A program made the translations under genes and the position numbers. A DNA stretch of 64,000 bases, taken from a virus (taxonomy: Duplodnaviria > Caudoviricetes). The stretch lies in the IMG/VR virus record IMGVR_UViG_3300044645_001661; one strand, written 5' to 3'. The notes below the pieces were generated by a model. That model searched no databases. It saw only the letters and a list, made by a program, of their open reading frames with translations, and was not told the DNA's origin. Of this stretch, positions 22,352 through 64,000 are shown in pieces (the stretch's first letter is position 1; every line of letters starts with the position of its first letter).

Positions 22352-24013
22352 ATGGCAAAATTATTTGGATTTTCTATAGAGAATAAGGAATCTATCTCAC
22401 CTTCTGTAGTATCCCCCGTCCCTCAAAACAATGAGGACGGGGTTGATCATTATTTAACAAGTGGTTTTTTTGGATCTTATGTAGATATAGAAGGTGTTTA
22501 TAGAACAGAATATGATTTAATTAAAAGATATAGAGAAATGTCACTTCACCCAGAAGTTGATAGTGCCATTGAAGATATTGTTAATGAAGCTATTGTTAGT
22601 GATAGTAACGATACTCCAGTACAAATTGAATTATCTAATTTAAATGCCAGTGATGGATTAAAAAAGAAAATAAGAGAAGAATTTAAAACAATTTTAGATT
22701 TATTAGATTTTGATAAAAAATCTCATGAAATTTATAGGAATTGGTACGTTGATGGAAGACTTTATTATCATAAAGTAATTGATCTAAAAAATCCTCACAA
22801 AGGTATCCAAGAATTAAGATATATTGACGCATTAAAAATGCGTTACATTAGACAATCTGTTAGTAAAAAGAAAAATAATGGTGGAGTTAGGATAAAAAAT
22901 TCTAACGATGAAAATCCAATGGATTATGATTTTCCAGAAATTGAAGAATATTTTGTGTATAATCCCACTGCACAATCTCCAATTGGGTCTATGAATGGAA
23001 GAAATTCCAGTCAAGCAAATTCTGGTATAAAAATTGCAAGGGATGCAATAACTTATTGTACTTCTGGATTAGTAGACAGAAATAAAGGAACTTGTTTATC
23101 TTACTTACATAAAGCAATCAAATCTCTCAATCAACTTCGCATGATTGAAGATAGTCTTGTTATCTACAGGTTATCTCGTGCCCCAGAACGTAGAATTTTT
23201 TATATCGACGTAGGTAATTTACCAAAAATTAAAGCAGAGCAATATTTACGTGACGTTATGATGCGTTATCGTAATAAACTTGTTTATGATGCTAGCACTG
23301 GTGAGATTAGAGATGATAAGAAGTTCATGAGTATGCTTGAGGACTTCTGGTTACCTCGCCGTGAAGGTGGTAGAGGAACTGAAATTACAACTCTTCCAGG
23401 TGGTCAAAACCTTGGTGAAATTACAGATATTAAATATTTCCAAAGTAAATTATATAAATCTTTGAATGTTCCCCCATCAAGAATAGAAGGTGAAGGTGGA
23501 TTTAATCTTGGAAGATCATCTGAAATTTTACGAGATGAACTTAAATTTACCAAATTTGTTGGTAGATTAAGAAGACGTTTTTCTAACATGTTTAATGACA
23601 TGTTAAAAACTCAATTAATACTAAAAAATATCGTAACTCCAGAAGATTGGGAGCAAATGAGTGAGCATATTCAATATGATTTCCTTTATGACAATCACTT
23701 CTCAGAATTAAAAGAAGCAGAATTAATGACTGAAAGGTTAAATATTGCGGCTACTGCTGAACCTTATATTGGTAAATATTATTCTCAAGATTATGTAAGA
23801 CGTAAAATTTTACGCCAAACTGATGAAGAAATTATTGAACAAGATCAACTTATTAAAAAAGAAATTAAATCTGGTATTATTCCAGATCCAAATGCACCAA
23901 TAGATCCAAATACTGGTATGCCTATGGATGCAAGTCAAAATAATATCGATGGTGCATCTGGAAAAGTTCCAATAGAACCAGGAATAAACGCATCAGATAC
24001 AGAAGTTAAGTAA
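22352..24013 (+). CDS. gp20: Portal protein gp20
   Basis: MAKLFGFSI, SLVIYRLSRAPERRIFYIDVGNLPK, MLEDFWLPRREGGRGTEITTLPGG. Confidence 0.97.
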   Translation: MAKLFGFSIENKESISPSVVSPVPQNNEDGVDHYLTSGFFGSYVDIEGVYRTEYDLIKRYREMSLHPEVDSAIEDIVNEAIVSDSNDTPVQIELSNLNASDGLKKKIREEFKTILDLLDFDKKSHEIYRNWYVDGRLYYHKVIDLKNPHKGIQELRYIDALKMRYIRQSVSKKKNNGGVRIKNSNDENPMDYDFPEIEEYFVYNPTAQSPIGSMNGRNSSQANSGIKIARDAITYCTSGLVDRNKGTCLSYLHKAIKSLNQLRMIEDSLVIYRLSRAPERRIFYIDVGNLPKIKAEQYLRDVMMRYRNKLVYDASTGEIRDDKKFMSMLEDFWLPRREGGRGTEITTLPGGQNLGEITDIKYFQSKLYKSLNVPPSRIEGEGGFNLGRSSEILRDELKFTKFVGRLRRRFSNMFNDMLKTQLILKNIVTPEDWEQMSEHIQYDFLYDNHFSELKEAELMTERLNIAATAEPYIGKYYSQDYVRRKILRQTDEEIIEQDQLIKKEIKSGIIPDPNAPIDPNTGMPMDASQNNIDGASGKVPIEPGINASDTEVK

Positions 24014-25799
24014 TTTTAATAAATTTATTTTTTAAAAGACCCTTTCTTCTTAAGATAAAAAGATTATTTTTATCATATCCTATAAAGTCATTATCGATTT
24101 TATAGGATATTTTATTTTTCTCCCAAGTTTCTATATTATATTTTGAGTTTAAAGTTAATGGATATTTTTGATTTTCATTAAAAATAAATTTTTTCTGAAT
24201 ATCAATAATTTCTGAGTCAATTTGTACAATATTTGAGCAATATAACTCAATAAATTCAAATAGTTTTGATTTATTTTTAAATAAGAATTCAAAACTACTA
24301 GCATGTAAAGAATGTCCAGTTTTGGCACCCTGTGTTATCTTCCCAGTCTTGATATAAGTAGAGACAATATTATATATTTCTTGATAATGAACTCCAATGA
24401 ATCCATCATCATTTTTTATACAGTCAAATAAATTATCATAAAATTTTCTATAACTTATATTTAAAATATTAAAGCAATACTTCGATAGCACTTGAGTATA
24501 TCCTGCTATATGCAATTGAACAATCAACCATCCGTACATATAACATTCAATTAATTCATCTGTGGTTAAAGTATCGGTTTTATTAATTAATTCTATACTT
24601 TCTTTTACTTCTGAGTAATCTTTTTCATTAGTGAATGAAACGTAATCCTCTGCTTTGATAGTTTCAATACCATATATTTTTCTAGATAATTCACTGTTCA
24701 ATTCACTGTTACCAAAAACTTGACAAAACCAAACATCAATAGATTCATGTTGCCCAAATTCTAATATTTTAGAGAATCCTTCCTTCCAAGAATCTATAGT
24801 TTCGTTTGGTAATCCTAAAATTAACTCGGTATAAGTTTTTACATCATGCTCTTTACTTTTTTCAATATGAGATGTAATGTTATTAATACTCATATTTTTT
24901 CTTTTAATTGCTTTAAGTGTTGGTTCATTCATACTTTGAACACTTATAGTTACACCTCTACTAATATCTCCAAGTATTTTTGCTATTTCAAAAACTACTT
25001 CTGTAGAATTTTTAGAATATTGCAAATTAACAGATTCTAATTTGCTATTATCAGCAACTTCTCTTATTAATTTTGCTATTTCTAAATCTCTTTCTTTATA
25101 CATTCCAAAATTTGCATCTGCACAAAATATAAATGCAACATTATTATTTTTAATCCATTCAAGATCATTTTTTACACGATCTAGATTAAACATTTTAACT
25201 TTACTATAGGTTAATCCACCCCAATCACAAAAAGTACATGAATGGGGGCACCCTCGATTAGTTTCAATAGTAGAAGCCCAAAGAGTATTTGGATTGTCTT
25301 TTACAATTTGATCAAATACTTTAGATTCATATGGACTTGGAAAGTCTAATTGCTCTATTCTACTTTTTTGATATATTTTTTCTATCGTTTTATTTTGAAT
25401 AATACTAGTTAATAAATCTAAGTAACTTTCTTCACCTTCACCAATTATTACACAATCTATAAATTCATTATCAAGAATTTTCAAAGTTGCTTGTGGTCCA
25501 CCAAATTGAATAATACAGTCTGGAAATTTTTCTTTTATTAGTTTTGATAAAAATAGACAATATTGCTCATTCCAAACGTAACAACTAAAACTGCACACTG
25601 TTGGATTGTCCAATCTTTCCAGTATTTTATCTGGATGCTCTCTTTTAAAGATAATATCTTTTAATACAAAATTGTTTTTTACTTCATCAAATTGATTACA
25701 ATAACTCCATAAACAACCAACACTGTAGGGAAGCCAATATGTGTCTTCATTTCTAATTTCTACAGAATATTGCGGTTGAAATAAATATATATTTTTCAT
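24006..25799 (-). CDS. Cobalamin-binding radical SAM enzyme, copy 2 (downstream copy)
   Basis: N-terminal B12-binding-like region (SFSCYVWN...IQFGGPQ), CxxxCxxC motif ETNRGCPHSCTFCDWGG, DANFG, ELILGLPNET. Confidence 0.85.
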   Translation of the reverse strand: MKNIYLFQPQYSVEIRNEDTYWLPYSVGCLWSYCNQFDEVKNNFVLKDIIFKREHPDKILERLDNPTVCSFSCYVWNEQYCLFLSKLIKEKFPDCIIQFGGPQATLKILDNEFIDCVIIGEGEESYLDLLTSIIQNKTIEKIYQKSRIEQLDFPSPYESKVFDQIVKDNPNTLWASTIETNRGCPHSCTFCDWGGLTYSKVKMFNLDRVKNDLEWIKNNNVAFIFCADANFGMYKERDLEIAKLIREVADNSKLESVNLQYSKNSTEVVFEIAKILGDISRGVTISVQSMNEPTLKAIKRKNMSINNITSHIEKSKEHDVKTYTELILGLPNETIDSWKEGFSKILEFGQHESIDVWFCQVFGNSELNSELSRKIYGIETIKAEDYVSFTNEKDYSEVKESIELINKTDTLTTDELIECYMYGWLIVQLHIAGYTQVLSKYCFNILNISYRKFYDNLFDCIKNDDGFIGVHYQEIYNIVSTYIKTGKITQGAKTGHSLHASSFEFLFKNKSKLFEFIELYCSNIVQIDSEIIDIQKKFIFNENQKYPLTLNSKYNIETWEKNKISYKIDNDFIGYDKNNLFILRRKGLLKNKFIKIT

Positions 25800-27604
25800 T
25801 CATCAATTTTAGATACAGTATTTTTTAGTAATCCCTTTCTTCTTAAAACCCAAAAATCATTTCGTATTGACTCATCTCTTTTATTTGAAACCATTAAACT
25901 TGTTGGTTTATCTTCCCATGTTGTTGTATCAACAGAAGAAGGAATAGTAATAGGATAATCTACCTCAGAGTCATAAACAAAGTTTTTTTGAAGATCCCAA
26001 AATTCATTAGTTATACCACCAAATTTTACCAGAGATTTATCAATTAAGGCAAATACTTCATTCCTATTATTCATAAAAAATGAAAAATCATTAGGAGAAT
26101 TAAATTCTAATGAATGTCCACTTTTATTATCTGGTAAAATTCCCTCTGTTAAGTAATTTTTTACATCGAACTTTAATTTTTGAAAATATTTACCAATTAT
26201 TCCGTTGTCAGTTTGAACCTTTTCAAATATTTCATCATAAAACATCCTATAAGTTATATTTTTATTGTAAAAAAGATATTTTGCTATTAGTTGAGCATAT
26301 CCATTTATATGGAATTGTATTACTGTCCAAGCATACAAATAACTTTCAATTAATTCCGAAGTTGCCATTGAATTAGTTTTATTAACTATCTCAACAATTT
26401 CTTTGAATCCATGATATTCCTTAGGATTAGTGAATGAAATATAGTCATACGCCTTTACTGTTTCAATTCCGTGCATCTTTCTAGAGAATTCACTTCCCAA
26501 TTCACTATTACCAAATAATTGGCAGAACCAAACATCAATCGATTCGTGTTGACCACACTCCAAAACTTTAGATAATCCGTCTTTCCAAGTTTCTAAAGTT
26601 TCCTCGGGTAATGGCAAAATCAGTTCAGTATATGTTTTAACTCCATATTCTTGACTCATTCTCATATGATTAGTCAAATCATTTATATGAAGATTCTTTC
26701 TCTTAATAGCCTTCAAAGTTGGTTGATTCATACTTTGAACGCTAATTGTTATTCCCCTAAGACAATGTTCTTCAAGTATTTTTGCAATTTTAAATACTGC
26801 TTCTGTTGAATTCTTAGCAAATTGTAAAACAACGTCACCAACATTGGTTTCTTTTAATTTGTCTCTGATTATCTCTGCTATAAGTATATCTCGCTCCTTA
26901 TACATTCCAAAATTAGCATCAGCAACAAATAAGTATCCAATATTATTATTTTTTATCCAAGTAATATCATCTTCAACTCTTTTTATATCAAAGTGATCTA
27001 CTTTACTCATAGTAGTTCCACCCCAATCACAAAAAGTACATCTATGAGGGCAACCTCGATTTGTTTCTATAGTTGCAGCCCAAATTACATTTGGATTTTC
27101 CTCGATTATTTTACTAAAAATATTAGATTGATATGGACTAGGATAATCCAGTGTAGATAATCTAGTTCTTTCGTAATATTTTTTTATTTCTTTGTTTTCT
27201 GTAATAGATTTAAGTATATCTAAAAAGTTTTCTTCCCCCTCAGAAATTATTACAGTATCAATAAAATCATTCTCCTCTTGCATTTTTTTAGATGCTTGAG
27301 GTCCACCAAATTCAATAATGCAATTTGGAAATTTTTCTTTTACTAGTTTAGCTATTCCTAGACAATACTGTTCATTCCAAATATAACAACTAAATCCACA
27401 TAAAACAGGATTATCCAATCTTTCTAATATTTTATCTGGATGTTCTCTTTTAAAAATTATATCCTTTAAAATAAAATTATTTTTTACTTCATCAAATTGA
27501 TTACAATAACTCCAAATACATCCAACACTATATGGTATCCAATAATTTTCTTGTTTTCTAACTTCTACAGAATATTGTGGTTGAAATAAATATATGTTTT
27601 TCAT
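25796..27604 (-). CDS. Cobalamin-binding radical SAM enzyme, copy 1 (602 aa from ATG 27604)
   Basis: GFSCYIWN...IEFGGPQ, ETNRGCPHRCTFCDWGG, DANFG, ELILPLPEET. The start is chosen to match its paralog (MKNIYLFQPQYSVE); its stop overlaps the paralog's ATG (ATGA). Confidence 0.85.
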   Translation of the reverse strand: MKNIYLFQPQYSVEVRKQENYWIPYSVGCIWSYCNQFDEVKNNFILKDIIFKREHPDKILERLDNPVLCGFSCYIWNEQYCLGIAKLVKEKFPNCIIEFGGPQASKKMQEENDFIDTVIISEGEENFLDILKSITENKEIKKYYERTRLSTLDYPSPYQSNIFSKIIEENPNVIWAATIETNRGCPHRCTFCDWGGTTMSKVDHFDIKRVEDDITWIKNNNIGYLFVADANFGMYKERDILIAEIIRDKLKETNVGDVVLQFAKNSTEAVFKIAKILEEHCLRGITISVQSMNQPTLKAIKRKNLHINDLTNHMRMSQEYGVKTYTELILPLPEETLETWKDGLSKVLECGQHESIDVWFCQLFGNSELGSEFSRKMHGIETVKAYDYISFTNPKEYHGFKEIVEIVNKTNSMATSELIESYLYAWTVIQFHINGYAQLIAKYLFYNKNITYRMFYDEIFEKVQTDNGIIGKYFQKLKFDVKNYLTEGILPDNKSGHSLEFNSPNDFSFFMNNRNEVFALIDKSLVKFGGITNEFWDLQKNFVYDSEVDYPITIPSSVDTTTWEDKPTSLMVSNKRDESIRNDFWVLRRKGLLKNTVSKIDE

Positions 27605-27627
27605 TTCATTGAACTTTATGTATGTTG

Positions 27628-27642
27628 TATTTATCATAAATA
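27628..27642. promoter_or_regulatory. Divergent back-to-back late promoters TATTTAT-C-ATAAATA
   Basis: Perfect inverted repeat giving ATAAATA on both strands, between the divergent starts at 27604(-) and 27666(+). Confidence 0.7.
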
Positions 27643-27665
27643 TAACAGAATTAAATGATTAAAAA

Positions 27666-27824
27666 ATGGACGAACTTTTAGATATGATTATCTCTGATGA
27701 ATCGCCATCACAAGTCAGCGATAAAATTAAAGAACTTCTTTTTGCCAAATCTGCAGAAAGAATTGAGGCATTAAGACCTACAGCAGGAAATTCATTATTT
27801 GGGAATCAAGAAGAGGTAGGATGA
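27666..27824 (+). CDS. Small head-cluster protein (52 aa, not in ORF track; prohead-core position)
   Basis: Hand translation MDELLDMIISDESPSQVSDKIKELLFAKSAERIEALRPTAGNSLFGNQEEVG*; it occupies the post-portal slot of T4-like phages. Confidence 0.75.
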   Translation: MDELLDMIISDESPSQVSDKIKELLFAKSAERIEALRPTAGNSLFGNQEEVG

Positions 27825-27825
27825 T

Positions 27826-28146
27826 ATGAAATCATTCAAGCAATTTATATCTGAATCAGTTAATATTGCTGGTGATTTTACTGGAAATCTTTATATTAAT
27901 TCCGAAACAGAACAACCTCAGCAAGTAGGAGAAAACTATGTTGCTGATGTTATGTGGCAAGGAAACTTGTATAGATTGGAATTAGTAACCAAATCTGGAT
28001 TGCCCTCAAAACAGGATTTAGGTGAGCAACTTCAAAGACAATATCCTGGAGCAATTGTTCATCAGATTTATCCAGCAGAAGAAAAGAACTTTAACATTAA
28101 AAACGTACAAAGATATCACCCCTCAAAATTAGAATGGATTGATTGA
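27826..28146 (+). CDS. Hypothetical protein with capsid-targeting-like N-terminus (candidate internal head protein)
   Basis: Starts MKSFKQFISE; its C-terminal half resembles a module of ORF 15438. Confidence 0.7.
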   Translation: MKSFKQFISESVNIAGDFTGNLYINSETEQPQQVGENYVADVMWQGNLYRLELVTKSGLPSKQDLGEQLQRQYPGAIVHQIYPAEEKNFNIKNVQRYHPSKLEWID

Positions 28147-28148
28147 TA

Positions 28149-29699: not shown

Positions 29700-29702
29700 T
29701 TA

Positions 29703-29709
29703 ATAAATA
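29703..29709 (+). promoter_or_regulatory. Late promoter core ATAAATA
   Basis: Intergenic, upstream of ORF 29736 and gp21. Confidence 0.6.
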
Positions 29710-29735
29710 ACTAATAAAGTCTTTATTATATAATA

Positions 29736-30005
29736 ATGCAAGTAACAAAACCACTTTCTATAGAAACTGATTTAGCAACTTCTTCTGGTGCTGGAACAAG
29801 TATACTTTCTGCAACATGCGTAAGATTATATAATGGAGCTGGTGCAGCAACTACAATTGCAATTTCAGCATCTGTTGGGGCGAGTGCATCTTATTCATTT
29901 ACTTTACCATCTGGTGCTGTTGAATTTATACAAAAATTACCCACTGATATTATCTGGGCTTCAGCATCATCTATAAAAGTAACAAAAGTAGGATTTACTA
30001 ACTAA
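29736..30005 (+). CDS. Small hypothetical protein upstream of gp21
   Basis: 89-aa ORF with late promoter; beta-rich (CVRLYN, FTLPSGAVEFIQK). Confidence 0.7.
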   Translation: MQVTKPLSIETDLATSSGAGTSILSATCVRLYNGAGAATTIAISASVGASASYSFTLPSGAVEFIQKLPTDIIWASASSIKVTKVGFTN

Positions 30006-30010
30006 GAAAA

Positions 30011-30661
30011 ATGAAACTTATCAGAGAAGAAATCGAAAAGGTAGAACTTATCACCGAAGATGTTGGTGGTAAAAAACAAATGTATATCCAAGGTGTATTC
30101 CTCCAAAGCGAAACAGTTAATCGTAATGGTAGAATGTATCCTTTTTCGATTATGGAAAGAGAAGTAAATCGTTATAATGAAAATTATGTTAAAAAAGGTA
30201 GGGCATTAGGAGAACTTGGTCATCCAGATGGTCCTACAGTAAATCTCGATAGAGTTTCTCATAAAATTACTGAATTAAAGCAAAGTGGTAATAATTTTGT
30301 AGGTAAGGCACAAATCTTATCAACTCCAATGGGAAAAATTGCAGCATCTCTTCTTAAGGATGGGGTAACTCTTGGTGTTTCATCCCGTGGTATTGGTTCT
30401 CTAAGAGAAAACAATAAAGGATATAAAGAAGTTGGTGAAGACTTCATGCTTGCAACTGCAGCTGATATTGTTGCTGATCCTTCTGCACCTGATGCTTTTG
30501 TTCAAGGCATTATGGAAGGCAAAGAATGGATTTGGGATGGTGGAATTCTCCGCGAAAAACTCGCAGAAAACACCAGAAGAAAAATTAATAATTTGGTTGA
30601 ACAAAGAAGACTAGAAGAGAATAAAATTGAGTTATTTAATGAATTTTTAAATTCATTATAA
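30011..30661 (+). CDS. gp21: Prohead protease gp21
   Basis: NRNGRMYP, ALGELGHPDGPTVNLDRVSH, LGVSSRGIGSL, ADIVADPSAPDAFV. Confidence 0.97.
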   Translation: MKLIREEIEKVELITEDVGGKKQMYIQGVFLQSETVNRNGRMYPFSIMEREVNRYNENYVKKGRALGELGHPDGPTVNLDRVSHKITELKQSGNNFVGKAQILSTPMGKIAASLLKDGVTLGVSSRGIGSLRENNKGYKEVGEDFMLATAADIVADPSAPDAFVQGIMEGKEWIWDGGILREKLAENTRRKINNLVEQRRLEENKIELFNEFLNSL

Positions 30662-36463: not shown

Positions 36464-36961
36464 ATGATAACTACAAATACTATGACTAAAAGAAAAAGGT
36501 CAGTTCATTATGTTAACAATAAAGATTTTTTGGCAGCATTGATTGAATATAAAAAAGAAATTGCTGCAGCTCAAGATAGAGGAGATCCAAAACCACGAAT
36601 AACGAATTACTTAGGAGAATGCTTCTTAAAGATCGCAACTCACCTATCTTTTAAACCTAATTTTGTCAACTATATTTTTAAAGATGACATGATTTCTGAT
36701 GGTATTGAAAATTGTGTTCAATACATTCATAATTTCAATCCAGAGAAGTCACAAAATCCATTTGCTTACTTTACTCAGATTATTCACTATGCATTTCTGA
36801 GAAGAATTCAAAAGGAAAAGAAGCAGTTGGAGATTAAGAATAAAATTCTTGAAAGAACTGGATATGATGAAGTCTTCTTTGATGACAATCATATTGACGG
36901 AATGAATTATTCTGACTATAATAGTATTAAGGATAGTATTCATTCTAAAACAAGGTACTGA
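36464..36961 (+). CDS. gp55: Late-transcription sigma factor gp55
   Basis: HYVNNKDFL, YLGECFLKIATHLS.KPNF.NY, DMISDGIENC, NPFAYFTQIIHYAFLRRIQKEKKQ. Confidence 0.95.
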   Translation: MITTNTMTKRKRSVHYVNNKDFLAALIEYKKEIAAAQDRGDPKPRITNYLGECFLKIATHLSFKPNFVNYIFKDDMISDGIENCVQYIHNFNPEKSQNPFAYFTQIIHYAFLRRIQKEKKQLEIKNKILERTGYDEVFFDDNHIDGMNYSDYNSIKDSIHSKTRY

Positions 36962-42466: not shown

Positions 42467-43582
42467 ATGACTCTCTCCTCTGACTACATCCGCACTTCCC
42501 TTCAAAACCTCTATGGTAATAACATCACTAGTGCTGATGTTCGTGCCTGGTGTAGTATGAATGGTTCAAACTATCAAACCGTAAGTAATAAAATCTATCA
42601 ATACAAAACTGGACATGGCAAATGGAATCTTGAAGTGACTCAACAAAAAGTAGAAGAAATCGAACGCACTTTTCAAGCACCTGCCGTGGTCCCTCCTGTA
42701 GAACAAAATCTTATCCCAGAAAAAGATGATACCTTCGTCAAGTTTGGTAACTTTAACGATATTAAACGCATTATTCAGTCCCGTCTCTTTTATCCTACGT
42801 TCATTACGGGTCTTTCGGGTAATGGTAAAACGTTTTCTATTGAACAAGCGTGTGCTCAATTGGGTCGTGAATTGATTCGTGTCAACATTACGATTGAGAC
42901 TGACGAAGATGATTTGATTGGTGGATTTCGTCTTGTTGATGGTAGTACTGCTTGGCACAACGGACCTGTGATTGAAGCACTTGAGCGTGGTGCTGTTCTG
43001 CTGCTGGATGAGATCGATCTTGCTTCTAACAAGATTCTGTGCCTCCAATCTATTCTTGAAGGTAAAGGTGTATTCCTTAAGAAGATTGGTCGTTGGGTAA
43101 AACCTGCTTCTGGTTTTAATGTTTTTGCTACTGCTAACACTAAAGGCAAAGGTAGTGATGATGGTCGTTTTATCGGAACCAACGTTCTTAATGAGGCATT
43201 CCTCGAACGATTCCCTGTAACTTTTGAACAGTCCTATCCTTCTCCCGCGACTGAGCAGAAGATCCTTGAAGGTATCGCTCTCGATCTTGGTGTGGAAGAC
43301 CGCGACTTCTGTAAGCGTCTGGTTGACTGGGCAGACATCATTCGCAAGACCTTCTTTGATGGTGGTATTGAGGAAATTATCAGCACCCGTCGTCTGGTTC
43401 ACATCATTCGTGCCTACAGCATCTTCCAAGATAAAGCAAAGGCAATCCAAGTTTGTGTGAACCGCTTTGATGATGAAACCAAGCAAGCATTCCTTGAACT
43501 TTATGATAAAGTGGATGCTGATTTCAAGATGCCTGAGGGTGAGCATGTAACTTACGATCTTGACCAGAAGGCTCCTTTTTGA
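42467..43582 (+). CDS. MoxR-type AAA+ ATPase (cyanophage 'CobS-like')
   Basis: Walker A GLSGNGKT, Walker B LLLDEID, ATANTKGKG, NEAFLERF, ISTRRLVH. Confidence 0.85.
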   Translation: MTLSSDYIRTSLQNLYGNNITSADVRAWCSMNGSNYQTVSNKIYQYKTGHGKWNLEVTQQKVEEIERTFQAPAVVPPVEQNLIPEKDDTFVKFGNFNDIKRIIQSRLFYPTFITGLSGNGKTFSIEQACAQLGRELIRVNITIETDEDDLIGGFRLVDGSTAWHNGPVIEALERGAVLLLDEIDLASNKILCLQSILEGKGVFLKKIGRWVKPASGFNVFATANTKGKGSDDGRFIGTNVLNEAFLERFPVTFEQSYPSPATEQKILEGIALDLGVEDRDFCKRLVDWADIIRKTFFDGGIEEIISTRRLVHIIRAYSIFQDKAKAIQVCVNRFDDETKQAFLELYDKVDADFKMPEGEHVTYDLDQKAPF

Positions 43583-55956: not shown

Positions 55957-55987
55957 GGTAAAGAATTATATGTTCTTTACCTTTTTT
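55957..55987 (+). terminator. Intrinsic terminator after gp41
   Basis: GGTAAAGAA-ttatatg-TTCTTTACC 9-bp stem followed by TTTTTT. Confidence 0.8.
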
Positions 55988-55993: not shown

Positions 55994-56001
55994 TATAAAT
56001 A
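55994..56001 (+). promoter_or_regulatory. Late promoter TATAAATA heading the glyco-modification operon
   Basis: Perfect T4 late consensus just after the terminator, 24 nt before ATG 56026. Confidence 0.8.
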
Positions 56002-56025
56002 AAATCACGAATAAAAATATAATTG

Positions 56026-57105
56026 ATGAAAAAATTATTTAAAATATTGACAAGTGAAAGAGTTGAATATAATAAAAAAAGTATAAAAATTTTTGATATG
56101 TTGAGATATTCATCCCATATTAGTAATATTTTGGAAAGTGACAAAAATAATTATATTAAAAATATGTGTTTATTTTTGGGAAAAAAAATAAGTAATAATA
56201 CAATCTTTTTTATTGATGATGAGAAATTTGAGCAGCAATACGAAAAACTTGAAGTATTTTTTGAGTTTATAAAAAGAATAGATGCTAAAAATAAAAATAT
56301 AATTTATATTGTAAAAACACAAATATTTGCAGACTATTTTGAAAAGTATGGAATAAAAAATTATATATTTGAACCATTATTGGAAGTTATTAATTTTTAT
56401 TATGGGTCTTTCAGAATAAGAAAATCTTTAGTAGGTGATAAAATAAAAGATGTATCATTTTGTTCATTGAATGGTACAAAAAATCAAGTTAGAGAATTTC
56501 TATTGTATAGATTAAATGATTATAATTTGTTACCTGAGGGATATGTTACTGCATGTGGACAATTTTTTCTCGATTTAAATGGTGAAGTCAAAAACCATAT
56601 ATTTGAAGATAAATTTTTTGATAAATTTTATTATGATGAAGGTCATAAATATTATCAAGATAAAAATTTAGTAAATATTCTTTATATTGATAAAAATATT
56701 CCAGGAAATATTTTTTTAACTGTGGAGTCATTTAATTACGATAAAATAGAAGAATCATTAAGACCACTATATACTGAAAAAACTTCTACTCCATTTTTAA
56801 CAAAAAGATTGCCTTTAATTATTGGATATATGAATATTATTGAAAATCTTAAAATGGATGGGTTTGATATGTTTGATGATATAATTGATTATGAATATGA
56901 TAAAATTGATCACATGGACTATCAAAAAAAAGTTGATCTTTGTATAAAAAATAATTCACATATTCTTAAACATAATAATTTTTATGATAATCCAGAAATT
57001 GATGAGAGATTGGAATACAATAAAAAACATTATAATGTGTGGGTAGAAAATAAAATTTTAAACTTTGAATCTAATATAGAAGAAAAATTAAAGTTATTTG
57101 TTTAG
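56026..57105 (+). CDS. Hypothetical protein, possibly GT-B/GT10-like glycosyltransferase
   Basis: C-terminal VES...LYTEKTSTPFLTKRLPLIIG...GFDMFDDIIDYEYD resembles the TEK motif region of GT10-like enzymes; a weak by-eye match. Confidence 0.45.
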   Translation: MKKLFKILTSERVEYNKKSIKIFDMLRYSSHISNILESDKNNYIKNMCLFLGKKISNNTIFFIDDEKFEQQYEKLEVFFEFIKRIDAKNKNIIYIVKTQIFADYFEKYGIKNYIFEPLLEVINFYYGSFRIRKSLVGDKIKDVSFCSLNGTKNQVREFLLYRLNDYNLLPEGYVTACGQFFLDLNGEVKNHIFEDKFFDKFYYDEGHKYYQDKNLVNILYIDKNIPGNIFLTVESFNYDKIEESLRPLYTEKTSTPFLTKRLPLIIGYMNIIENLKMDGFDMFDDIIDYEYDKIDHMDYQKKVDLCIKNNSHILKHNNFYDNPEIDERLEYNKKHYNVWVENKILNFESNIEEKLKLFV

Positions 57106-57112
57106 ATATATT

Positions 57113-57643
57113 ATGGAAGATAAATTTATTACTGGTAAAATAGATAGTAATTTAATTGGGGATTTTAAAAATATAGATTATCCTGGAAGAAGGCAATTTA
57201 GGGATGATGAAACTGTTGAGAGGTGGAAAAATCTTGGGCATTTGTATGTAAATTATACTGGATTTATTCGTGAAGAATATAGAGGTCTACCTGATTGGTG
57301 TAATTTAGTACTTGATGAAATAAAAAATCAATTAAAAATTTATAATATTTCTTGCTCTCTATATCGTATGCCTCCAGGAACAATAATGCCAGAACATAAA
57401 GATGCATATTTGAATTATAAAAAAATATTTAAAATAGATGATGTGAATAATATTTGTAGAGTATTAGTATTTTTGGATGATTGGAAATCTGGGCATTATT
57501 TTGAATTGAATGATAATCCAGTGATACAATGGAAATCTGGAGATTACTACATGTGGACTGGAGAAACACCACACATTGCTGCTAATATTGGAAGAGAAAA
57601 TAGATATACAATGCAGATAACTGGAACTATTGATCATGGATGA
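57113..57643 (+). CDS. 2OG-Fe(II) oxygenase
   Basis: MPPGTIMPEHKD (HxD), distal PHIAAN His, and a 2OG-binding Arg in RYTMQIT. Confidence 0.75.
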   Translation: MEDKFITGKIDSNLIGDFKNIDYPGRRQFRDDETVERWKNLGHLYVNYTGFIREEYRGLPDWCNLVLDEIKNQLKIYNISCSLYRMPPGTIMPEHKDAYLNYKKIFKIDDVNNICRVLVFLDDWKSGHYFELNDNPVIQWKSGDYYMWTGETPHIAANIGRENRYTMQITGTIDHG

Positions 57644-58361
57644 AAGAAGAGCCGTTATAGATGAGTTAGTAAAAAATTATCCTAATTACTGCTCAACCTT
57701 TACATTTAAATTGAAAAAAGGTATACCTGGAGAAGTAATACACAAAGAGGGTTTTGTTAACTGTTATATGGATGTAAAAAATTATCTTATTTACATGCAT
57801 ATTGATAAGTGTGCGAGTACATCAATAACTACTGCACTAAGAGATCAAAAACCATATTTTGTAAAAATGGATGATATTCCAAAATCTGAAGAATTTGCTA
57901 AACTTTTGGTCCAAAAAGAATATACATTTTTTACTGCAGTTAGAGATCCAATTTCTAGATGGATGTCTGGATTGAATGAATTTATGTGTAGATATAGACC
58001 TCCAATTAATTATGTTATTGAACAACTTAAAAATAAAAAATATGTTTTTGATGAGCATACCGCACCACAACATTTGTTTTTAAGATTATGTTTAGAAAAT
58101 AATGGAAATCTTATTTGTGTAAAAATGGATTCTGATATGGAATTTAAAATTAATGATGTTATTAGGTGTTCTTTAAAAAATGAATTTATGCGTGAAAAAT
58201 ATATCCCACTTAAAATTCCACAATTAAGGAGTTCAAAATATTTTATACCAAATTATATAAGTGTATGTAAAAAAATGTATGAAGTTTATGTAAAAAATGA
58301 TCCTGAAGAATTTAATAAATTATATAAAATTGATTTTGATTTATACAATAATGCACTATGA
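57636..58361 (+). CDS. Sulfotransferase (family 2-like)
   Basis: 5'-PAPS loop YMHIDKCASTSI and 3'-PAPS motif FTAVRDPISRWMS, plus H..PQ. Confidence 0.7.
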   Translation: MDERRAVIDELVKNYPNYCSTFTFKLKKGIPGEVIHKEGFVNCYMDVKNYLIYMHIDKCASTSITTALRDQKPYFVKMDDIPKSEEFAKLLVQKEYTFFTAVRDPISRWMSGLNEFMCRYRPPINYVIEQLKNKKYVFDEHTAPQHLFLRLCLENNGNLICVKMDSDMEFKINDVIRCSLKNEFMREKYIPLKIPQLRSSKYFIPNYISVCKKMYEVYVKNDPEEFNKLYKIDFDLYNNAL

Positions 58362-58960
58362 ATAGTTTCGATACCGTAAAGAAATTAGAAGAATTAATAG
58401 CAAACTTTTTTGGATCACCATATGCAGTTGCAACTGATTGTTGTACCCATGCTATAGAATTGTGTTTAAGATATGAAAAGTATGACAATATTGAAATTCC
58501 AGAACAAACGTACATTTCAATTCCATTTACTGCAGAAAAACTTAATTTAAAATGGTCTTGGAAAAAAAATTATACCTGGCATGATCATTATTACATTTGG
58601 AATACAAATATAATAGATGCGGCTGTTTTTTGGGAACGGAATGGATATATACCAAAAACATATATGTGTTTAAGTTTTCAGTATAAAAAACATTTAAATC
58701 TTGGTAAAGGTGGCATGATACTATTAGACAATTATGATGCTTATACTGATCTTAAAAAAATGGTTTATGATGGTAGAGAATCTGATAAACCATGGGGAGA
58801 ACAGAACATTAAAACAATAGGATATCACTACTACATGACACCAGAAACTGCTGAAACTGGTATACATAAGTTTGAAGAAGTATCTTCTATGAAACCAAAA
58901 AGATGGAGTTATCTTAATTATCCATTTTTACCTAGTATGGATGTATTTAAAAAATTATGA
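58358..58960 (+). CDS. Short DegT/DnrJ/EryC1/StrS-type PLP aminotransferase
   Basis: YAVATDCCTHAIELCL, IDAA, SFQYKKHL.LG.GGMIL (PLP lysine region), GYHYYM; only 200 aa. Confidence 0.7.
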   Translation: MNSFDTVKKLEELIANFFGSPYAVATDCCTHAIELCLRYEKYDNIEIPEQTYISIPFTAEKLNLKWSWKKNYTWHDHYYIWNTNIIDAAVFWERNGYIPKTYMCLSFQYKKHLNLGKGGMILLDNYDAYTDLKKMVYDGRESDKPWGEQNIKTIGYHYYMTPETAETGIHKFEEVSSMKPKRWSYLNYPFLPSMDVFKKL

Positions 58961-59835
58961 ATTTAGATAATAAATTAAAAGGATTACCTCCAATATTTTA
59001 CCTAAATCTGGATCACAGAACAGATAGAAAGGAATATATGGAAGGGCAATTTAAAGAAAGAGGTATAACAGATTATACTAGAATATCAGCATCTCGATTT
59101 GCTACATCTAAAATTGATGAATGGGGGCATAGATTAGATTTGATGTTATTGGCTAAATCTGATGCATCTATCGTAATGAATCAGTTTACTACAATAATTG
59201 ATTGGTATAATTCTGGTATATCAGAAACTTGTATAATAATGCAAGATGATCTCAGTTTAGAATTAATTGATTATTGGATGTTTGATTGGGAAACAATTGT
59301 AAAAAGTTTGCCATATAATTGGGATTGTGTTCAATTTTATCATTGTCATAATGAAGAAATGCGTATGCACTTACATAAAAGAAGTTATGGAAGCTCATCT
59401 GCTGCTTGTTATATGATTAATAGATGGTACGCAGAAAAATTAATTAAATTGCACTTGCAACCAGATAATTCATTCAAACTTAAAAATAATTTAAAAGATG
59501 TAAGTGTTCCTAAAGAGTGTTATAGTAGTGATGATTTTCTATTATATCAAATTGGTGTAAGTTATAGTTTACCAATTTTGTGTTTGAATCAAAGACTTTC
59601 TCAAACTCCCGATAACAAATTGCAGGAAGATGAAACTGATGAAGACTATGATCCAGTAATAAGCATATATCATAATAAAATTCATGATATACTTGCTAGT
59701 ACATGTGTGAGAAGATGGTGGGAGAATGAAAGTTCAAAATATAAAGCGGAAGATATTTTAAGTTACGGTGGTTCAATCCATAGAAAAATGATCGTTCCTA
59801 TTCCTAAATTTAACAGAAAGGTACTTCCAAAATGA
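58957..59835 (+). CDS. GT25-like glycosyltransferase paralog 1
   Basis: YLNLDHRTDRKEYME, RISA, IIMQDD, LPYNWDCVQF. Confidence 0.65.
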   Translation: MNLDNKLKGLPPIFYLNLDHRTDRKEYMEGQFKERGITDYTRISASRFATSKIDEWGHRLDLMLLAKSDASIVMNQFTTIIDWYNSGISETCIIMQDDLSLELIDYWMFDWETIVKSLPYNWDCVQFYHCHNEEMRMHLHKRSYGSSSAACYMINRWYAEKLIKLHLQPDNSFKLKNNLKDVSVPKECYSSDDFLLYQIGVSYSLPILCLNQRLSQTPDNKLQEDETDEDYDPVISIYHNKIHDILASTCVRRWWENESSKYKAEDILSYGGSIHRKMIVPIPKFNRKVLPK

Positions 59836-60695
59836 ATATAGAATTAAATAAATTAAAAACAATAGGATTTCCCAAAGTTTTTTATTTGAATGCGGATTCT
59901 AGACCAGATAGGGGAAATTATATAGAATCATGTTTTGAAAAATGGGGAATAGAACGATACGAAAGAATTCCTACAAGTAGATATACTCCAACCAATTATC
60001 ATGAATGGGAAGATTTAATTTTAGATGATAATATTTTACAAACTCCAGAGGAAATATCTAAAACTATCAATCATTTAAAAACAATAATTGATTGGTATGA
60101 TAATGGGGATGAAGAATATTGTATAATAATGGATGATATTATTGATATTAACTCAATAGATACTTGGATGTTTGATTGGGAAACTCTATATAAAAATCTT
60201 CCATATAATTGGGATTGTGTGCATCTATTCTTTTATAGTAATAGAACTATTAATATGCACCTAAAACCAAAAGACGATGATACTAAGGGTGTGTATTGTT
60301 ATATGATAACACGACAATTTGCTAAAAAAATTAAACAACTTCATTATGTTGATGATAAGTTTAAATTTTTTGTTAATACTAGAAATTTAAAACTACCAGA
60401 ATATAAGTATGGATCTCTAGAATCATTTTTATTTGATTTGGGTATAACCTATACATTGCCCGTATTTTATTTGAGTCTAAAATATTTTGGTGAACCTAAA
60501 GAATTGGAAGATATTTTATGTAAACTTTCTTCGGAATCTATTGAGTTTTGGTGGAAAATAAAGTCTAAAGAATTTTCCATGCAAGAATTTTTCTCATACA
60601 ATAAAAGATATGATTGGAAAATGGAAGTTCTTTTTGACGTAAAAGAAAAACAAGTATATATGGATAAAGTTGAAAAAATAATGTTATGGATTTAA
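59832..60695 (+). CDS. GT25-like glycosyltransferase paralog 2
   Basis: YLNADSRPDR, NHL, IIMDD, LPYNWDCVHL. Confidence 0.65.
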   Translation: MNIELNKLKTIGFPKVFYLNADSRPDRGNYIESCFEKWGIERYERIPTSRYTPTNYHEWEDLILDDNILQTPEEISKTINHLKTIIDWYDNGDEEYCIIMDDIIDINSIDTWMFDWETLYKNLPYNWDCVHLFFYSNRTINMHLKPKDDDTKGVYCYMITRQFAKKIKQLHYVDDKFKFFVNTRNLKLPEYKYGSLESFLFDLGITYTLPVFYLSLKYFGEPKELEDILCKLSSESIEFWWKIKSKEFSMQEFFSYNKRYDWKMEVLFDVKEKQVYMDKVEKIMLWI

Positions 60696-61540
60696 AGAAC
60701 AAATTAAAAAATATGCCGAAAGTCTATTATTTTAATTTGGATAATAGAACTGATAGAAAAAAATATATGGAAAAACAATTTGATAGGTGGGGCATAACCT
60801 ATCAAAGAATATCTGGAACAAAATACTTAGCATCAAAAAATAAAGAATGGAATCATTTAATTATTGATGTAAAAAATTATAAGTTATTAGTTCCAATTGC
60901 AGCTAATGCAATATCTCATTTGGAATTTTTGAAGAAATGGTATGAAGAAACAACAGATCCATATGTTCTGTTGATGGAAGATGATTATGATTTAAACTTG
61001 ATACAATATTGGCATTTTGATTGGGATTACTTGATGTCAAGATTGCCATATGATTGGGATTGCTTGCAACTAGGATTTGAAAATCCAATAGGGATACCTT
61101 TTTATCTTCATCCGATGGCAACCTCTCATGATTTTGGTCCATGTTTACTTAGTAGAGATTATGTTTATAAATTAATCTCATTACACTGTGTCGGTGATAA
61201 GTACAAGTTAATTAATACAATATCCAATGGTGCCTGGAATGCAGAAGAAGGTGGATGTGGTTCTGGAACGGTAGATTATTTTATATGCCACTGTGGAAAA
61301 ACCTATTCTATACCTTTAATAACAATAAATCCAACATTCGGTAGTTTCGAAAATAATAGTCTACTTCAAAAACTCTATAGAAATAATGGGGATGTAATGG
61401 CTAGAAATACATATTATTATTGGTGGCAAAATGAAAGAGATAAATTTACCTTAGATGATTTTTTTACTTATGGTAAAAAATATGACCGTAAGATGATATT
61501 GGATCAAAATAAATATGGAAACTATAGACCTAGAAAATAA
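60686..61540 (+). CDS. GT25-like glycosyltransferase paralog 3
   Basis: YFNLDNRTDRKKYME, ISHL, LLMEDD, LPYDWDCLQLG. Confidence 0.75.
   Translation: MDLKNKLKNMPKVYYFNLDNRTDRKKYMEKQFDRWGITYQRISGTKYLASKNKEWNHLIIDVKNYKLLVPIAANAISHLEFLKKWYEETTDPYVLLMEDDYDLNLIQYWHFDWDYLMSRLPYDWDCLQLGFENPIGIPFYLHPMATSHDFGPCLLSRDYVYKLISLHCVGDKYKLINTISNGAWNAEEGGCGSGTVDYFICHCGKTYSIPLITINPTFGSFENNSLLQKLYRNNGDVMARNTYYYWWQNERDKFTLDDFFTYGKKYDRKMILDQNKYGNYRPRK
60974..61062 (+). repeat. 89-bp perfect direct repeat, copy 1 (in GT paralog 3)
   Basis: Identical base-for-base to 63513..63601. Confidence 0.9.
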
Positions 61541-62420
61541 ATTAAGGGGATTCCCCCATGTATATTATTTTAATCTCGATCAAAAAACTGATCGTAAAAA
61601 GTACATGGAAACCCAATTTGATCGTTGGGGTATAGAATATACTAGAATGTCATCTAACATATATTCTATATGGAATTATGACGATTGGACTACAAATAAG
61701 GTAACTGGTGACAAAAGTGATACCGATCAAAGACTTTATGCCCCAGCAATGATGCATTTTGAGTTATTTAAAAGGTGGTTACATGATACAGACGAAGAAT
61801 ATATTCTTGTAATGGAAGATGATTATGATTTAAGTTTAATCGAATATTGGCATTTTGATTGGAATTATTTGATGTCTAAATTGCCTTATGATTGGGATTG
61901 TATTCAATTGGGATTTGAGACTTCAAATGTAATATCATTTTACCTTCATCCAGTAAAAGAAGATTATTCATTTGGACCATGTTTATTTAAAAGAGAATAT
62001 GTAGAAAAACTTTTAAGACTTCATTCTGAAGGATTTAAATATAGATTTGATTTTAACATTTCCAATTGTCATTGGAGAGATAGAAGAAATTATAAAAATG
62101 CTGCAGGTTCTTTAGAATATTTTATGTGTCAATCTGGAAGAACGTATTCAATTCCTTTAATCGCTTTAAATCCTTATTTTAGTTTTTGGTATTATAAGGA
62201 TAAATGGATACCAAAGTCTTACTTTCAAATGTGCTATGATTCTTATTATGATTGGTGGCAAAATGATAGAGACAAATTCACTTTAGATGATTTTTTTACT
62301 TATGGAAAGGTAAATGATAAAATTATGGAAAGAAATCTAGAATATTGTGACACTAAATATTTTGAAGAAAAGACCAAAGTATGTAGAGAAAAATTTTTGA
62401 AAGAATATGGATTTAAGTAA
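61515..62420 (+). CDS. GT25-like glycosyltransferase paralog 4
   Basis: YFNLDQKTDRKKYME, MHF, LVMEDD, LPYDWDCIQLG. Confidence 0.75.
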   Translation: METIDLENKLRGFPHVYYFNLDQKTDRKKYMETQFDRWGIEYTRMSSNIYSIWNYDDWTTNKVTGDKSDTDQRLYAPAMMHFELFKRWLHDTDEEYILVMEDDYDLSLIEYWHFDWNYLMSKLPYDWDCIQLGFETSNVISFYLHPVKEDYSFGPCLFKREYVEKLLRLHSEGFKYRFDFNISNCHWRDRRNYKNAAGSLEYFMCQSGRTYSIPLIALNPYFSFWYYKDKWIPKSYFQMCYDSYYDWWQNDRDKFTLDDFFTYGKVNDKIMERNLEYCDTKYFEEKTKVCREKFLKEYGFK

Positions 62421-63207
62421 TAAGTTATTCGGAATACCAAAAGTATATTATTTTAATTATGATGAGCATAAAAATAGAAATTACCATATGGACAGAAATC
62501 TTGGTAATTTGAAAGTTGCTAATTATGAAAAAGTTTCAGCATCAAAATATACTTCTAAAAATTATGAAGATTGGAAAAATTTGATTATTGATGTTGAGAA
62601 TTATAAATTAACTCCAAATATTGCTGGATATGCAATTACTGTATTGGAATTTTTAAAAAGATGGTTAGAAGAAACTGATGAACCAGAATTAATTATAACA
62701 AAAGATACTATTGATTTTGATTTAATTGAATACTGGAAATTTGATTGGAATTATTTAAAATCCAGACTTCCTTATGATTGGGATTGTATTCAACTTGGAT
62801 TTGAAAATTCTCAGTATATACCATTTTATTTACATCCAATACTTCCTTCTAGTACTTTTGGTCCATCACTTCTCAATAGACACTATGTTAAAAAAATAGT
62901 TAAATTGCATTGTGTTGGAGATCAATATAAGTTGAATAATTATATTGCAAATATGTATTTCAGTGGACAATCTGGAACAGTTGATTATTTTATTGGACAT
63001 AATGGCAATACATACTCAATGCCACTATTCCCTAATAAACCAGAATTTTTTGACAAGAATACTAAAAAGTATGTTTTAGTTTACATTTGTAAAAATGCAT
63101 ATCATGAATGGTGGAAGCGAGAAAGTGGCAAATTTAATTTGGATGAGATATTTACTTATGGAAAATATAATGATATTGGAATGGTAAAAAAACTTCGTAA
63201 AAAATAA
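62407..63207 (+). CDS. GT25-like glycosyltransferase paralog 5 (degenerate motifs)
   Basis: YFNYDEHKNR, IITKDT in place of MEDD, LPYDWDCIQLG. Confidence 0.65.
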   Translation: MDLSNKLFGIPKVYYFNYDEHKNRNYHMDRNLGNLKVANYEKVSASKYTSKNYEDWKNLIIDVENYKLTPNIAGYAITVLEFLKRWLEETDEPELIITKDTIDFDLIEYWKFDWNYLKSRLPYDWDCIQLGFENSQYIPFYLHPILPSSTFGPSLLNRHYVKKIVKLHCVGDQYKLNNYIANMYFSGQSGTVDYFIGHNGNTYSMPLFPNKPEFFDKNTKKYVLVYICKNAYHEWWKRESGKFNLDEIFTYGKYNDIGMVKKLRKK

Positions 63208-63215
63208 TTAAAATT

Positions 63216-64000
63216 ATGAACATTAATTTGTCAAACAAACTAAAAGGACTGCCACACATCTATTATGTAAATTTGGATAATAGATCTGATAGAAAAAAAT
63301 ATATGGAGTCCCAGTTTGATTTTTGGAGAATAAAAGATTACACTAGAGTATCTTCTTCAAAATACTTAGCATCTGAATCTGAATCTTGGGCAAATAAAGT
63401 TATTGATGGGAGCATAAAAAATCTATCATCATATGTTGTTGGTAATGCAATAACACACTTAGAACTTTTAAAAGATTGGGTTAATAATTCTAGTGATGAA
63501 TATGTCATTTTAATGGAAGATGATTATGATTTAAACTTGATACAATATTGGCATTTTGATTGGGATTACTTGATGTCAAGATTGCCATATGATTGGGATT
63601 GTATTCAATTGGGATTTGAATCAAAAGAATTTATTCCATTCTTTTTACATCCTAAATTGAGACATAGTTATTTTGGTCCTATTATGATTACTAGAGAGTA
63701 TGCTAAAAAAATATTGCGATTGCATTGTGTCGGTGAAGACAAATATAGTTTAGATAAATTAATTGCTGATTATAATTTTAAAGTTTGTTCTACTTCTGTA
63801 GATTACTTTATGGGACATACTGGCAGAACGTACTCTATTCCATTAATAACTACAAATGTTGATCTAGGTAGCACTGAAAGTGATATACAAATAGAAAGAA
63901 GACATCATGTTAAATCTAGAGCCGCATACTATTATTGGTGGATGAAGAGAAGTATGAAGTATAATCTAGATGAATTTTTTACCTATGGAAAACCAAATGA
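63216..64000 (+). CDS. GT25-like glycosyltransferase paralog 6 (3'-truncated by the window; not in ORF track)
   Basis: Hand translation MNINLSNKLKGLPHIYYVNLDNRSDRKKYME...ITHL...ILMEDDY...LPYDWDCIQLG; open to the window end. Confidence 0.75.
   Translation, partial: MNINLSNKLKGLPHIYYVNLDNRSDRKKYMESQFDFWRIKDYTRVSSSKYLASESESWANKVIDGSIKNLSSYVVGNAITHLELLKDWVNNSSDEYVILMEDDYDLNLIQYWHFDWDYLMSRLPYDWDCIQLGFESKEFIPFFLHPKLRHSYFGPIMITREYAKKILRLHCVGEDKYSLDKLIADYNFKVCSTSVDYFMGHTGRTYSIPLITTNVDLGSTESDIQIERRHHVKSRAAYYYWWMKRSMKYNLDEFFTYGKPN
63513..63601 (+). repeat. 89-bp perfect direct repeat, copy 2 (in GT paralog 6)
   Basis: Identical base-for-base to 60974..61062. Confidence 0.9.

Follow-up and report, generated by a model that had tools for sequence, protein, structure and literature searches.

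The described systems closest to the genes considered here are the TokK/ThnK and CysS/KedN5 C-methyltransferases (PDB 7kdx, 9n1c), the lipopolysaccharide (LPS) or cell-wall clusters of the cyanophages P-SSM2, S-SCSM1 and S-SCSM2R (PMC12801897, PMC7824862), the streptomycin inosamine-phosphate amidinotransferase StrB1 (PDB 1bwd), and the virion glycosylation of mycobacteriophages together with the glycan machinery of giant viruses. Glycosyltransferase clusters of cyanophages have been read as modifying the host surface (PMC12801897, PMC7824862), and mycobacteriophage virions are glycosylated by phage-encoded glycosyltransferases according to Freeman et al. 2023, as that work is cited in PMC12619734 and PMC12801897. 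The present analysis concerns a T4-like cyanomyophage assembled from lake water (IMG/VR record IMGVR_UViG_3300044645_001661), and specifically a window of 64,000 nucleotides (64 kb) of the 148,843-bp record, which is about 77% complete (CheckV) and encodes a major capsid protein 83% identical to its counterpart in Synechococcus phage S-B05. A pair of cobalamin (B12)-dependent radical S-adenosylmethionine (rSAM) genes located among the head genes, a glycan-related operon (the glyco operon) adjacent to the helicase gene gp41, and a third cluster outside the window are interpreted as one phage system for tailoring a sugar or oligosaccharide, with a probability of about 0.6.

Like TokK/ThnK and CysS/KedN5, the phage rSAM proteins have a three-domain fold and a CxxxCxxC motif, but they are only 20-25% identical to the solved structures, are phage-encoded as a conserved tandem pair, and have sugar enzymes rather than carbapenem or polyketide genes as neighbours. 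The cyanophage clusters share with the window phage arrays of family 25 glycosyltransferases (GT25), nucleoside diphosphate (NDP)-sugar epimerases or dehydratases, GT11, GT2 and GT4, and S-SCSM2R also shares a half-size DegT-like protein (mini-DegT, 56% identical), an amidinotransferase (66%) and a small rSAM (44%) encoded inside its glyco operon. However, the clusters of cultured cyanophages have neither the B12-rSAM pair nor a 220-aa protein associated with it in relatives, and the system of the window phage is split over three loci, its operon having a terminator and late box of its own. The StrB1-like protein aligns over its full length with StrB1, including the invariant Cys of the FHC motif, but its gene is found in operons with half-size DegT-like and cupin proteins instead of a cyclitol pathway. 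As far as the cited sources describe them, the mycobacteriophage and giant-virus systems resemble the present one in having soluble phage glycosyltransferases encoded in or near the structural block and apparently expressed late; by comparison, the enzyme families of the window phage differ, its tailoring set is much larger, and it has no C-terminal acceptor extension, gp23 being 469 aa long versus 467-472 aa in relatives.

A first-pass annotation of the window, made from the sequence without database searches, had described two non-core enzyme cassettes that are AT-rich, expanded by paralogy and translationally coupled, and this description was borne out. The remainder of the 64 kb consists of genes for structure and replication, together with one cobS-like gene and one for a Dam methylase. 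Both cassettes have 26.9% G+C, versus 32.8% across the remaining window; they contain two rSAM genes and six tandem GT25-like genes, respectively; and overlaps of 4 nt in the rSAM pair and of 4-26 nt between most operon genes are evident. The rSAM pair and the GT25 array are made up as follows (L-numbers here and below are the IMG/VR loci compared in the analysis):

24006-25799, minus strand: rSAM B, 597 aa, the gp20-proximal, conserved copy
25796-27604 (open frame to 27637), minus strand: rSAM A, 602 aa from the likely start Met12, the faster-evolving copy
58957-59835, plus strand: GT25-like member 1, PF01755 17.7 bits (below cut-off), orthogroup kept in L067 and L071
59832-60695, plus strand: GT25-like member 2, no Pfam match, 31-35% identical to other members, orthogroup conserved
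60686-61540, plus strand: GT25 member 3, PF01755 29.1 bits (cut-off 24), homologs in 98 cyanophage records
61515-62420, plus strand: GT25-like member 4, below the Pfam cut-off, ortholog of the rSAM-linked GT25 of relatives
62407-63207, plus strand: GT25-like member 5, no Pfam match, recognised by paralogy, orthogroup conserved
63216-64000 in the window, continuing to 64034, plus strand: GT25-like member 6, PF01755 21.7 bits (below cut-off)

The six array members (58957-64034) are 26-52% identical pairwise. Only 60686-61540 passes the PF01755 gathering cut-off of 24 bits, three copies scoring 17.7-21.7 bits and two having no match, and all of the array members are clear paralogs of this copy. 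An acidic DxD-type motif, MEDDYD, is invariant in the orthogroup of the gene at 61515, in the rSAM-linked copies and in the copy at 60686, among the members checked.

The direct connection between the cassettes that the first-pass annotation lacked is supplied by relatives of the window phage. There are 54 IMG/VR loci with rSAM relatives, 50 of them T4-like, and in every one of these 50 the rSAM genes lie between gp20 and gp21 on the opposite strand; a GT25 gene of about 300 aa heads the rSAM operon in 28. A GT25 tree that included array orthologs of two other lineages resolved six orthogroups in fixed order, and all rSAM-linked GT25s nest inside the orthogroup of 61515-62420 (support 100/99 and 98/94), to which they are 42-49% identical. 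Thus, the 61515-type GT25 links the two cassettes. Its placement is complementary: the lineage with an rSAM-linked GT25 (L067/L099) has a five-member array missing exactly the 61515-type orthogroup, whereas the window lineage has this gene in the array and none beside the rSAM genes. On a 124,874-bp contig of this second lineage, about 37 kb separate the rSAM operon from the amidinotransferase gene of the five-member array, as in the window phage. Five IMG/VR contigs (43-65 kb) with the rSAM module end before gp41 and hence are uninformative about the operon. An earlier GT25 tree that included S-SCSM2R rows was unresolved and was replaced by the tree with array orthologs.

The rSAM site itself varies among relatives. 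Three B12-rSAM genes are present between gp20 and gp21 in L020, L022, L023, L031 and L041, in four of which the third copy is upstream of the GT25 gene. In about 30 loci (e.g. L010:6603-7265, minus strand) a gene for the 220-aa protein follows gp20 on the structural strand, convergent with the rSAM operon; it is absent from the window phage. This protein has invariant His74, Asp76 and His168, resembling a cupin triad; neither Pfam nor the PDB gave a match for it, and cultured phages have no homolog. Comparison with the cupin-like Hyd family of the glyco operon gave an hhalign probability of 5.6%, and an Atlas match to Asp_Arg_Hydrox (0.89) is a lead only.

Ahead of the array and beyond it, the glyco operon has the following genes, all but the first of them for putative tailoring enzymes:

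56023-57105, plus strand: first operon gene, 360 aa, 20.8% G+C, present in the closest relatives only
57098-57643, plus strand: Hyd, a cupin or Asp-Arg-hydroxylase-like protein, 181 aa, PF05118 19.9 bits (under the cut-off of 22.6)
57630-58361, plus strand: sulfotransferase-like protein, 243 aa, PF03567 Sulfotransfer_2 25.0 bits (just over the cut-off of 22)
58358-58960, plus strand: mini-DegT, a half-size DegT-like (sugar aminotransferase-like) protein, 200 aa, PF01041 52.8 bits (cut-off 19.8)
64065-65039, just beyond the window end: StrB1-like amidinotransferase, continuing the operon, PDB 1bwd E 5e-81 over profile positions 3-319
65036-66259, beyond the window end: NDP-sugar dehydrogenase, continuing the operon, by Pfam and NCBIfam

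The mini-DegT protein matches perosamine synthase and ArnB in two segments in a PDB profile search, and its model has the large-domain fold of sugar aminotransferases (TMq 0.62-0.67), but it does not have the two-domain architecture of about 360-390 aa, as about 80 large-domain residues and the entire C-terminal domain are missing. It nevertheless belongs to a conserved short family of 194-209 aa (mean column identity 66% over 13 aligned homologs), in which the SFxxKK lysine motif is retained (S106, F107, K111, G118 and G119 invariant, K110 nearly so) and aligns with the pyridoxal phosphate-lysine region of perosamine synthase. Hyd has His100, Asp102 and His159 invariant in 10 homologs, and the amidinotransferase has invariant H315 and C316, the latter being the Cys of the FHC motif. 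Earlier enzyme calls were thus upheld in part: the sulfotransferase is above its cut-off, whereas the protein called DegT is half-size and the one called a 2-oxoglutarate oxygenase is under the Pfam cut-off, so that these two calls should be narrowed, and the predicted chemistry needs broadening to take in guanidino and uronic groups. The 360-aa product of the first operon gene has no Pfam or NCBIfam match, and the sole lead for it is a weak Atlas match to GT10 (0.80, chance level). The enzymes are soluble, and no membrane segment was predicted in any cassette protein of the window. Among cultured phages, homologs of the amidinotransferase occur only in S-SCSM2R and in Campylobacter myophages (CPt10, CP20, vB_CcoM-IBB_35 and others), the latter at 24-25% identity over the full length.

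The presence of StrB1-like and DegT-like proteins parallels aminoglycoside pathways, which also contain B12-rSAM C-methylases and carbamoyltransferases, and might be taken to indicate a soluble guanidino-glycoside, an aminoglycoside-like metabolite directed against host translation or competing phages. Homologs in S-SCSM2R were labelled 'antibiotic synthesis genes' by its authors (PMC12801897). Such a product is nevertheless very unlikely: the conservation of six GT25 orthogroups, always in the same order, points to a longer oligosaccharide, and the cassettes showed no gene for a cyclitol synthase, an exporter or self-resistance.

Support for a joint tailoring system of rSAMs and sugar enzymes comes also from phages less closely related to the window phage. 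Single-copy sister rSAM genes (products 47-50% identical) on non-T4 contigs directly follow a gene for an NDP-sugar epimerase and are beside homologs of the mini-DegT, Hyd and amidinotransferase genes. A scan for mini-DegT found 36 IMG/VR loci (L063-L098), from T4-like cyanophages and from unrelated large phages including a 364-kb contig; mini-DegT nearly always adjoins a StrB1-like amidinotransferase, and Hyd accompanies both in most of the loci. A distant B12-rSAM (24-36% identical) flanks this trio in 11 of the 36 loci, in at least three layouts, and in one such cluster genes for an FkbM methyltransferase, a carbamoyltransferase and a twitch-rSAM are also present. The occurrence of B12-rSAM beside the trio in such varied phage contexts indicates that the association of radical SAM and sugar genes is recurrent, not a single accident.

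The third locus of the proposed system lies beyond the window:

L059:667-10939, 22.7-33 kb past the window end: second glyco cluster, encoding a small rSAM, GDP-mannose 4,6-dehydratase, an epimerase, GT11, GT6, a DUF7796 protein, a phosphoglucomutase-nucleotidyltransferase fusion, GT4, a seventh GT25, and an SLH-domain protein with an N-terminal hydrophobic segment

The best match of its small rSAM is viperin-like, at 49.6 bits versus a cut-off of 180, too low for an assignment. Farther along the record are two paralogs with 30% mutual identity, at 130239-132041 and 139377-140963 (66.2 and 75.4 kb past the window end); the homologous protein of L086 is a carbamoyltransferase (Carbam_trans_N, Carbam_trans_C) inside a B12-rSAM/mini-DegT cluster.

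The rSAM pair was assigned by motif, profile and fold. The two proteins are 58% identical. Radical_SAM of Pfam matches rSAM B at 55.9 bits, and the B12-binding domain scores 22-24 bits for the pair (22.2 for B), under the cut-off of 32.1. The CxxxCxxC motif for a [4Fe-4S] cluster is present as GCPHSCTFC at residue 184 of B and GCPHRCTFC at residue 196 of A, and C184, C188 and C191 are invariant across 22 homologs. An AlphaFold model of rSAM B (pLDDT 87) superposes over its full length on TokK (7kdx) with TMq 0.86 and on CysS with TMq 0.75; the fit to cobalamin-bound TokK extends over about 630 alignment columns and includes an N-terminal Rossmann-type cobalamin-binding domain. The best NCBIfam match is the KedN5 family (NF033712), at 165 and 159 bits (residues 64-385 and 76-397) versus a cut-off of 700. 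Judged by these profile scores, the pair is nearest to the KedN5 family yet outside it; together with the model, they mark both proteins as putative iterative C-methylases among the cobalamin-dependent radical SAM enzymes, belonging to no named family. Since the N-terminus of rSAM A from Met12 (at 27604) matches that of its paralog B, both beginning with MKNIYLFQPQYSVE, Met12 is the likely start of A. With the single-copy rSAMs of non-T4 contigs as outgroup, the rSAM tree contains two old clades, one of the conserved B copies (60-64% identical in relatives) and one of fast-evolving A copies with long branches. The rSAM region had no blastn match among 50,697 phage records, and a literature search found no description of cobalamin-dependent radical SAM enzymes in cyanophages.

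Several observations weigh against a single system. The substrates of TokK and CysS are pantetheine-linked small molecules, not sugars. A B12-rSAM homolog was found by tblastn in no cultured cyanophage, whereas GT25 is present in 98 cultured cyanophage records, and the GT25 array, mini-DegT and amidinotransferase are all encoded by S-SCSM2R in the absence of a B12-rSAM. The occurrence of this operon type in S-SCSM2R indicates that the glycan can be made without the rSAMs, which would then be an optional add-on. Many of the 28 co-operonic cases derive from one ancestral arrangement and so are not independent events. The 124,874-bp records labelled NCBI and JGI+NCBI were taken as one contig because they have equal lengths, and their single identity rests on this equality and the 'JGI+NCBI' label, not on overlapping sequence. 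The late box of the glyco operon is lineage-specific, so that late timing shared by the cassettes is not conserved, and no specific acceptor tail or motif was found in the sequences. The first-pass proposal that the cassettes form one pathway gains support from the orthologous GT25 beside the rSAM genes in 28 of 50 loci, from the B12-rSAMs adjoining homologs of three operon genes in unrelated phages and from the second-lineage contig with both cassettes, and is weakened in that the rSAMs are optional. Likewise, independent distribution of the cassettes across genomes, named beforehand as the outcome that would speak against the proposal, was observed in half: GT25 in the 98 cultured records, and the whole operon type in S-SCSM2R, occur without B12-rSAM.

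These distributions bear on the possibility that the cassettes are independent, the rSAMs methylating a head or core protein, a lipid or a cofactor and the adjoining GT25 having a separate single-step function. B12-rSAM is present in no cultured phage that has GT25 or the operon, the site between portal and prohead genes could suggest a head-protein substrate, and class B rSAMs include protein methylases, one of which, MgmA, is in the list of fold matches (TMq 0.44). Independence is nonetheless considered unlikely, because the rSAM-linked GT25 is orthologous to an array member and the two are placed in complementary fashion, because B12-rSAMs recur beside mini-DegT, amidinotransferase, Hyd and epimerase genes in unrelated phages, and because the top structural matches are methylases of small molecules, not proteins.

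The regulatory signals that would govern a joint system were compared between the cassettes:

27628-27642, both strands: 15-nt palindrome TATTTAT-C-ATAAATA, with a NATAAATA late-type box on each strand
36464-36961, plus strand: gp55-like late sigma factor that would read late boxes, Sigma70_r2 23.1 bits (just below the cut-off of 24)
55957-55981, plus strand: terminator-like hairpin and T-run 3' of the helicase gene gp41, a 10-pair stem followed by TTTTTT, only in this lineage (L063-L065)

A perfect T4-type late box, TATAAATA, is located at 55994-56001 on the plus strand, 22 nt ahead of the first gene of the glyco operon; there are 4 copies of TATAAATA in the 64 kb, compared with 13 expected. 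The hairpin that precedes it may insulate the glyco operon from the replication genes. The rSAM box, GATAAATA, is at 27628-35 on the minus strand, within the called open reading frame (ORF) and 24 nt upstream of the corrected start; the correction of the rSAM A start to Met12 thus puts this box in promoter position. The palindrome directs one box toward the rSAM pair and the other (CATAAATA) toward a 52-aa ORF and the head genes. Matches to ATAAATA are depleted in the window (24 versus 49 expected), and 8 of the 22 on the plus strand lie no more than 60 nt ahead of a gene start, a zone that takes in 5% of positions (P = 8e-6), an enrichment indicating that the box marks real promoter positions. 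The place of the gp55-like gene after UvsW agrees with T4-like cyanophages. Of 40 loci of relatives, 38 have a NATAAATA box ahead of the gene that opens the GT25/rSAM operon. The glyco-operon box is absent from relatives L066-L075, in which gp41 abuts the operon at 0-6 nt and a box is either lacking or only internal. The view that gp55-type late boxes head both cassettes is thus correct for the window and, for the rSAM box, across relatives, but does not extend to the operon box of other lineages.

Two boxes were noted at the site of the 61515-type GT25. In the window, a AATAAATA box at 61508-61515 on the plus strand ends at the start codon of this gene, and in L067, whose array has no 61515-type gene, a GATAAATA box is within the gap at the equivalent array position. 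Judging from their positions, these boxes could be a trace of the gene relocating along with a late box. The 52-aa ORF (27666-27824, plus strand) is directly 3' of the plus-strand late box and occupies the same site in the closest relatives (L005, L006, L008); its position ahead of gp21 is taken in other lineages by small ORFs of 51-76 aa.

Timing also bears on whether the product of the same linked pathway remodels the host envelope, as an LPS/O-antigen-like or cell-wall glycan, and so brings about superinfection exclusion or prevents re-adsorption to debris. The operon directly adjoins UvsX and gp41 in relatives, where it has no late box; characterised bacterial members of PF01755 serve LPS biosynthesis (Pfam family description); the second glyco cluster ends in an SLH-domain protein with an N-terminal hydrophobic segment; and this is the standard reading of such clusters in the literature (PMC12801897, PMC7824862), in which no experimental test in any cyanophage was found. 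However, the rSAM/GT25 module is in the head block with a conserved late box, and late expression fits exclusion poorly; moreover, the cassette genes of the window include none for a membrane protein, a flippase, a polymerase or a lipid-carrier priming enzyme. Remodelling of the host envelope is rated as rather unlikely, as is, correspondingly, a host envelope glycan as the acceptor.

According to the favoured reading, in which rSAMs, glyco operon and third cluster form one tailoring system, a sugar or nucleotide-sugar would receive from the rSAMs at least one C-methyl group (or possibly ethyl or isopropyl), the 61515-type GT25 would next transfer or handle the modified sugar, and the remaining GT25s would extend an oligosaccharide that also bears amino or guanidino, uronic and sulfate groups. 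The rSAM module would be transcribed late by way of the conserved NATAAATA box in the head-gene block, and in this lineage the glyco operon would be late as well. A bolder version is that a widespread clade of lake and ocean cyanophages builds, by means of TokK-like B12-rSAMs, C-alkylated sugars (methyl to isopropyl) that are assembled late, with guanidino and sulfate groups and by six dedicated GT25s, into a defined oligosaccharide on virion proteins; this version is speculative and unlikely to hold in full.

Virion surface proteins are a possible though doubtful acceptor, the residual odds being left to another acceptor or to unlinked cassettes. Ser plus Thr make up 17-20% of residues in tail and fibre proteins versus a genome mean of 12.9%, and 12.8% in the major capsid protein gp23. 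Of the earlier suggestion that structural proteins are rich in Ser and Thr, the part concerning tail and fibre proteins was reproduced and the capsid was not enriched; such values are usual for these proteins and are not a glycosylation signal. The inserted surface modules noted at first in the structural proteins, for example the 922-aa sheath, are common to all relatives. Collagen-type glycosylation of hydroxylysine was rejected as a candidate, the window being devoid of collagen-like repeats, which leaves this idea with no substrate here.

Glycan hypermodification of phage DNA bases was the remaining candidate outcome. Phage glycosyltransferases that act in this way are known, as cited in a passage of PMC12619734, and the authors of the S-SCSM2R study raised the possibility. 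A TET/JBP search gave no match, but its control was likewise unmatched. There is no ThyA-family hydroxymethylase or C5 DNA methylase in the 77%-complete genome, and GT25 is not among the known DNA glycosyltransferase families. On the basis of gene content, DNA glycosylation is weakly disfavoured, and as an explanation of the two cassettes it is ranked as highly improbable.

The surrounding genes follow the order of two blocks:

Structural block: fibre-like giants, terminase, sheath, tube, portal gp20, rSAM pair (opposite strand), then the 52-aa ORF, a phrog_1742 protein, a virion protein, protease gp21, scaffold gp22 and capsid gp23
Replication block: UvsY/UvsW, gp55-like factor, gp47/46, cobS-like AAA protein, gp45/44/62, Dam, RegA, Hsp20, DNA polymerase, UvsX and gp41, with the glyco operon last
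42467-43582, plus strand: cobS-like AAA protein (AAA_5 + CbbQ_C, 371 aa), between the two cassettes

The cobS-like protein may relate to cobalamin supply; cobS is common among cyanomyophages that have no B12-rSAMs. The sequencing runs that contain this stretch, from at least 15 lake-water studies, are of lake-water DNA only, with no RNA run listed.

Whereas glycan gene clusters of cyanophages were known, two findings are new: the 61515-type GT25 is orthologous to the rSAM-linked copies and placed in complementary fashion, and rSAMs are recurrently linked to the mini-DegT/amidinotransferase/Hyd trio. Through the genetic link between rSAMs and sugar enzymes, what was a set of odd genes becomes an assayable pathway, in which the 61515-type GT25 is the candidate partner of the rSAMs, and the near-universal cobS-like gene of cyanophages may gain a role in cobalamin supply. 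If the target is the host surface, the system bears on how phages reshape receptor landscapes in lakes. If the target is the virion, abundant aquatic phages would join the mycobacteriophages in having glycosylated virions, which would affect adsorption, grazing and stability, and if radical tailoring also holds true, no earlier particle glycan of a bacteriophage is known to have been tailored by such chemistry.

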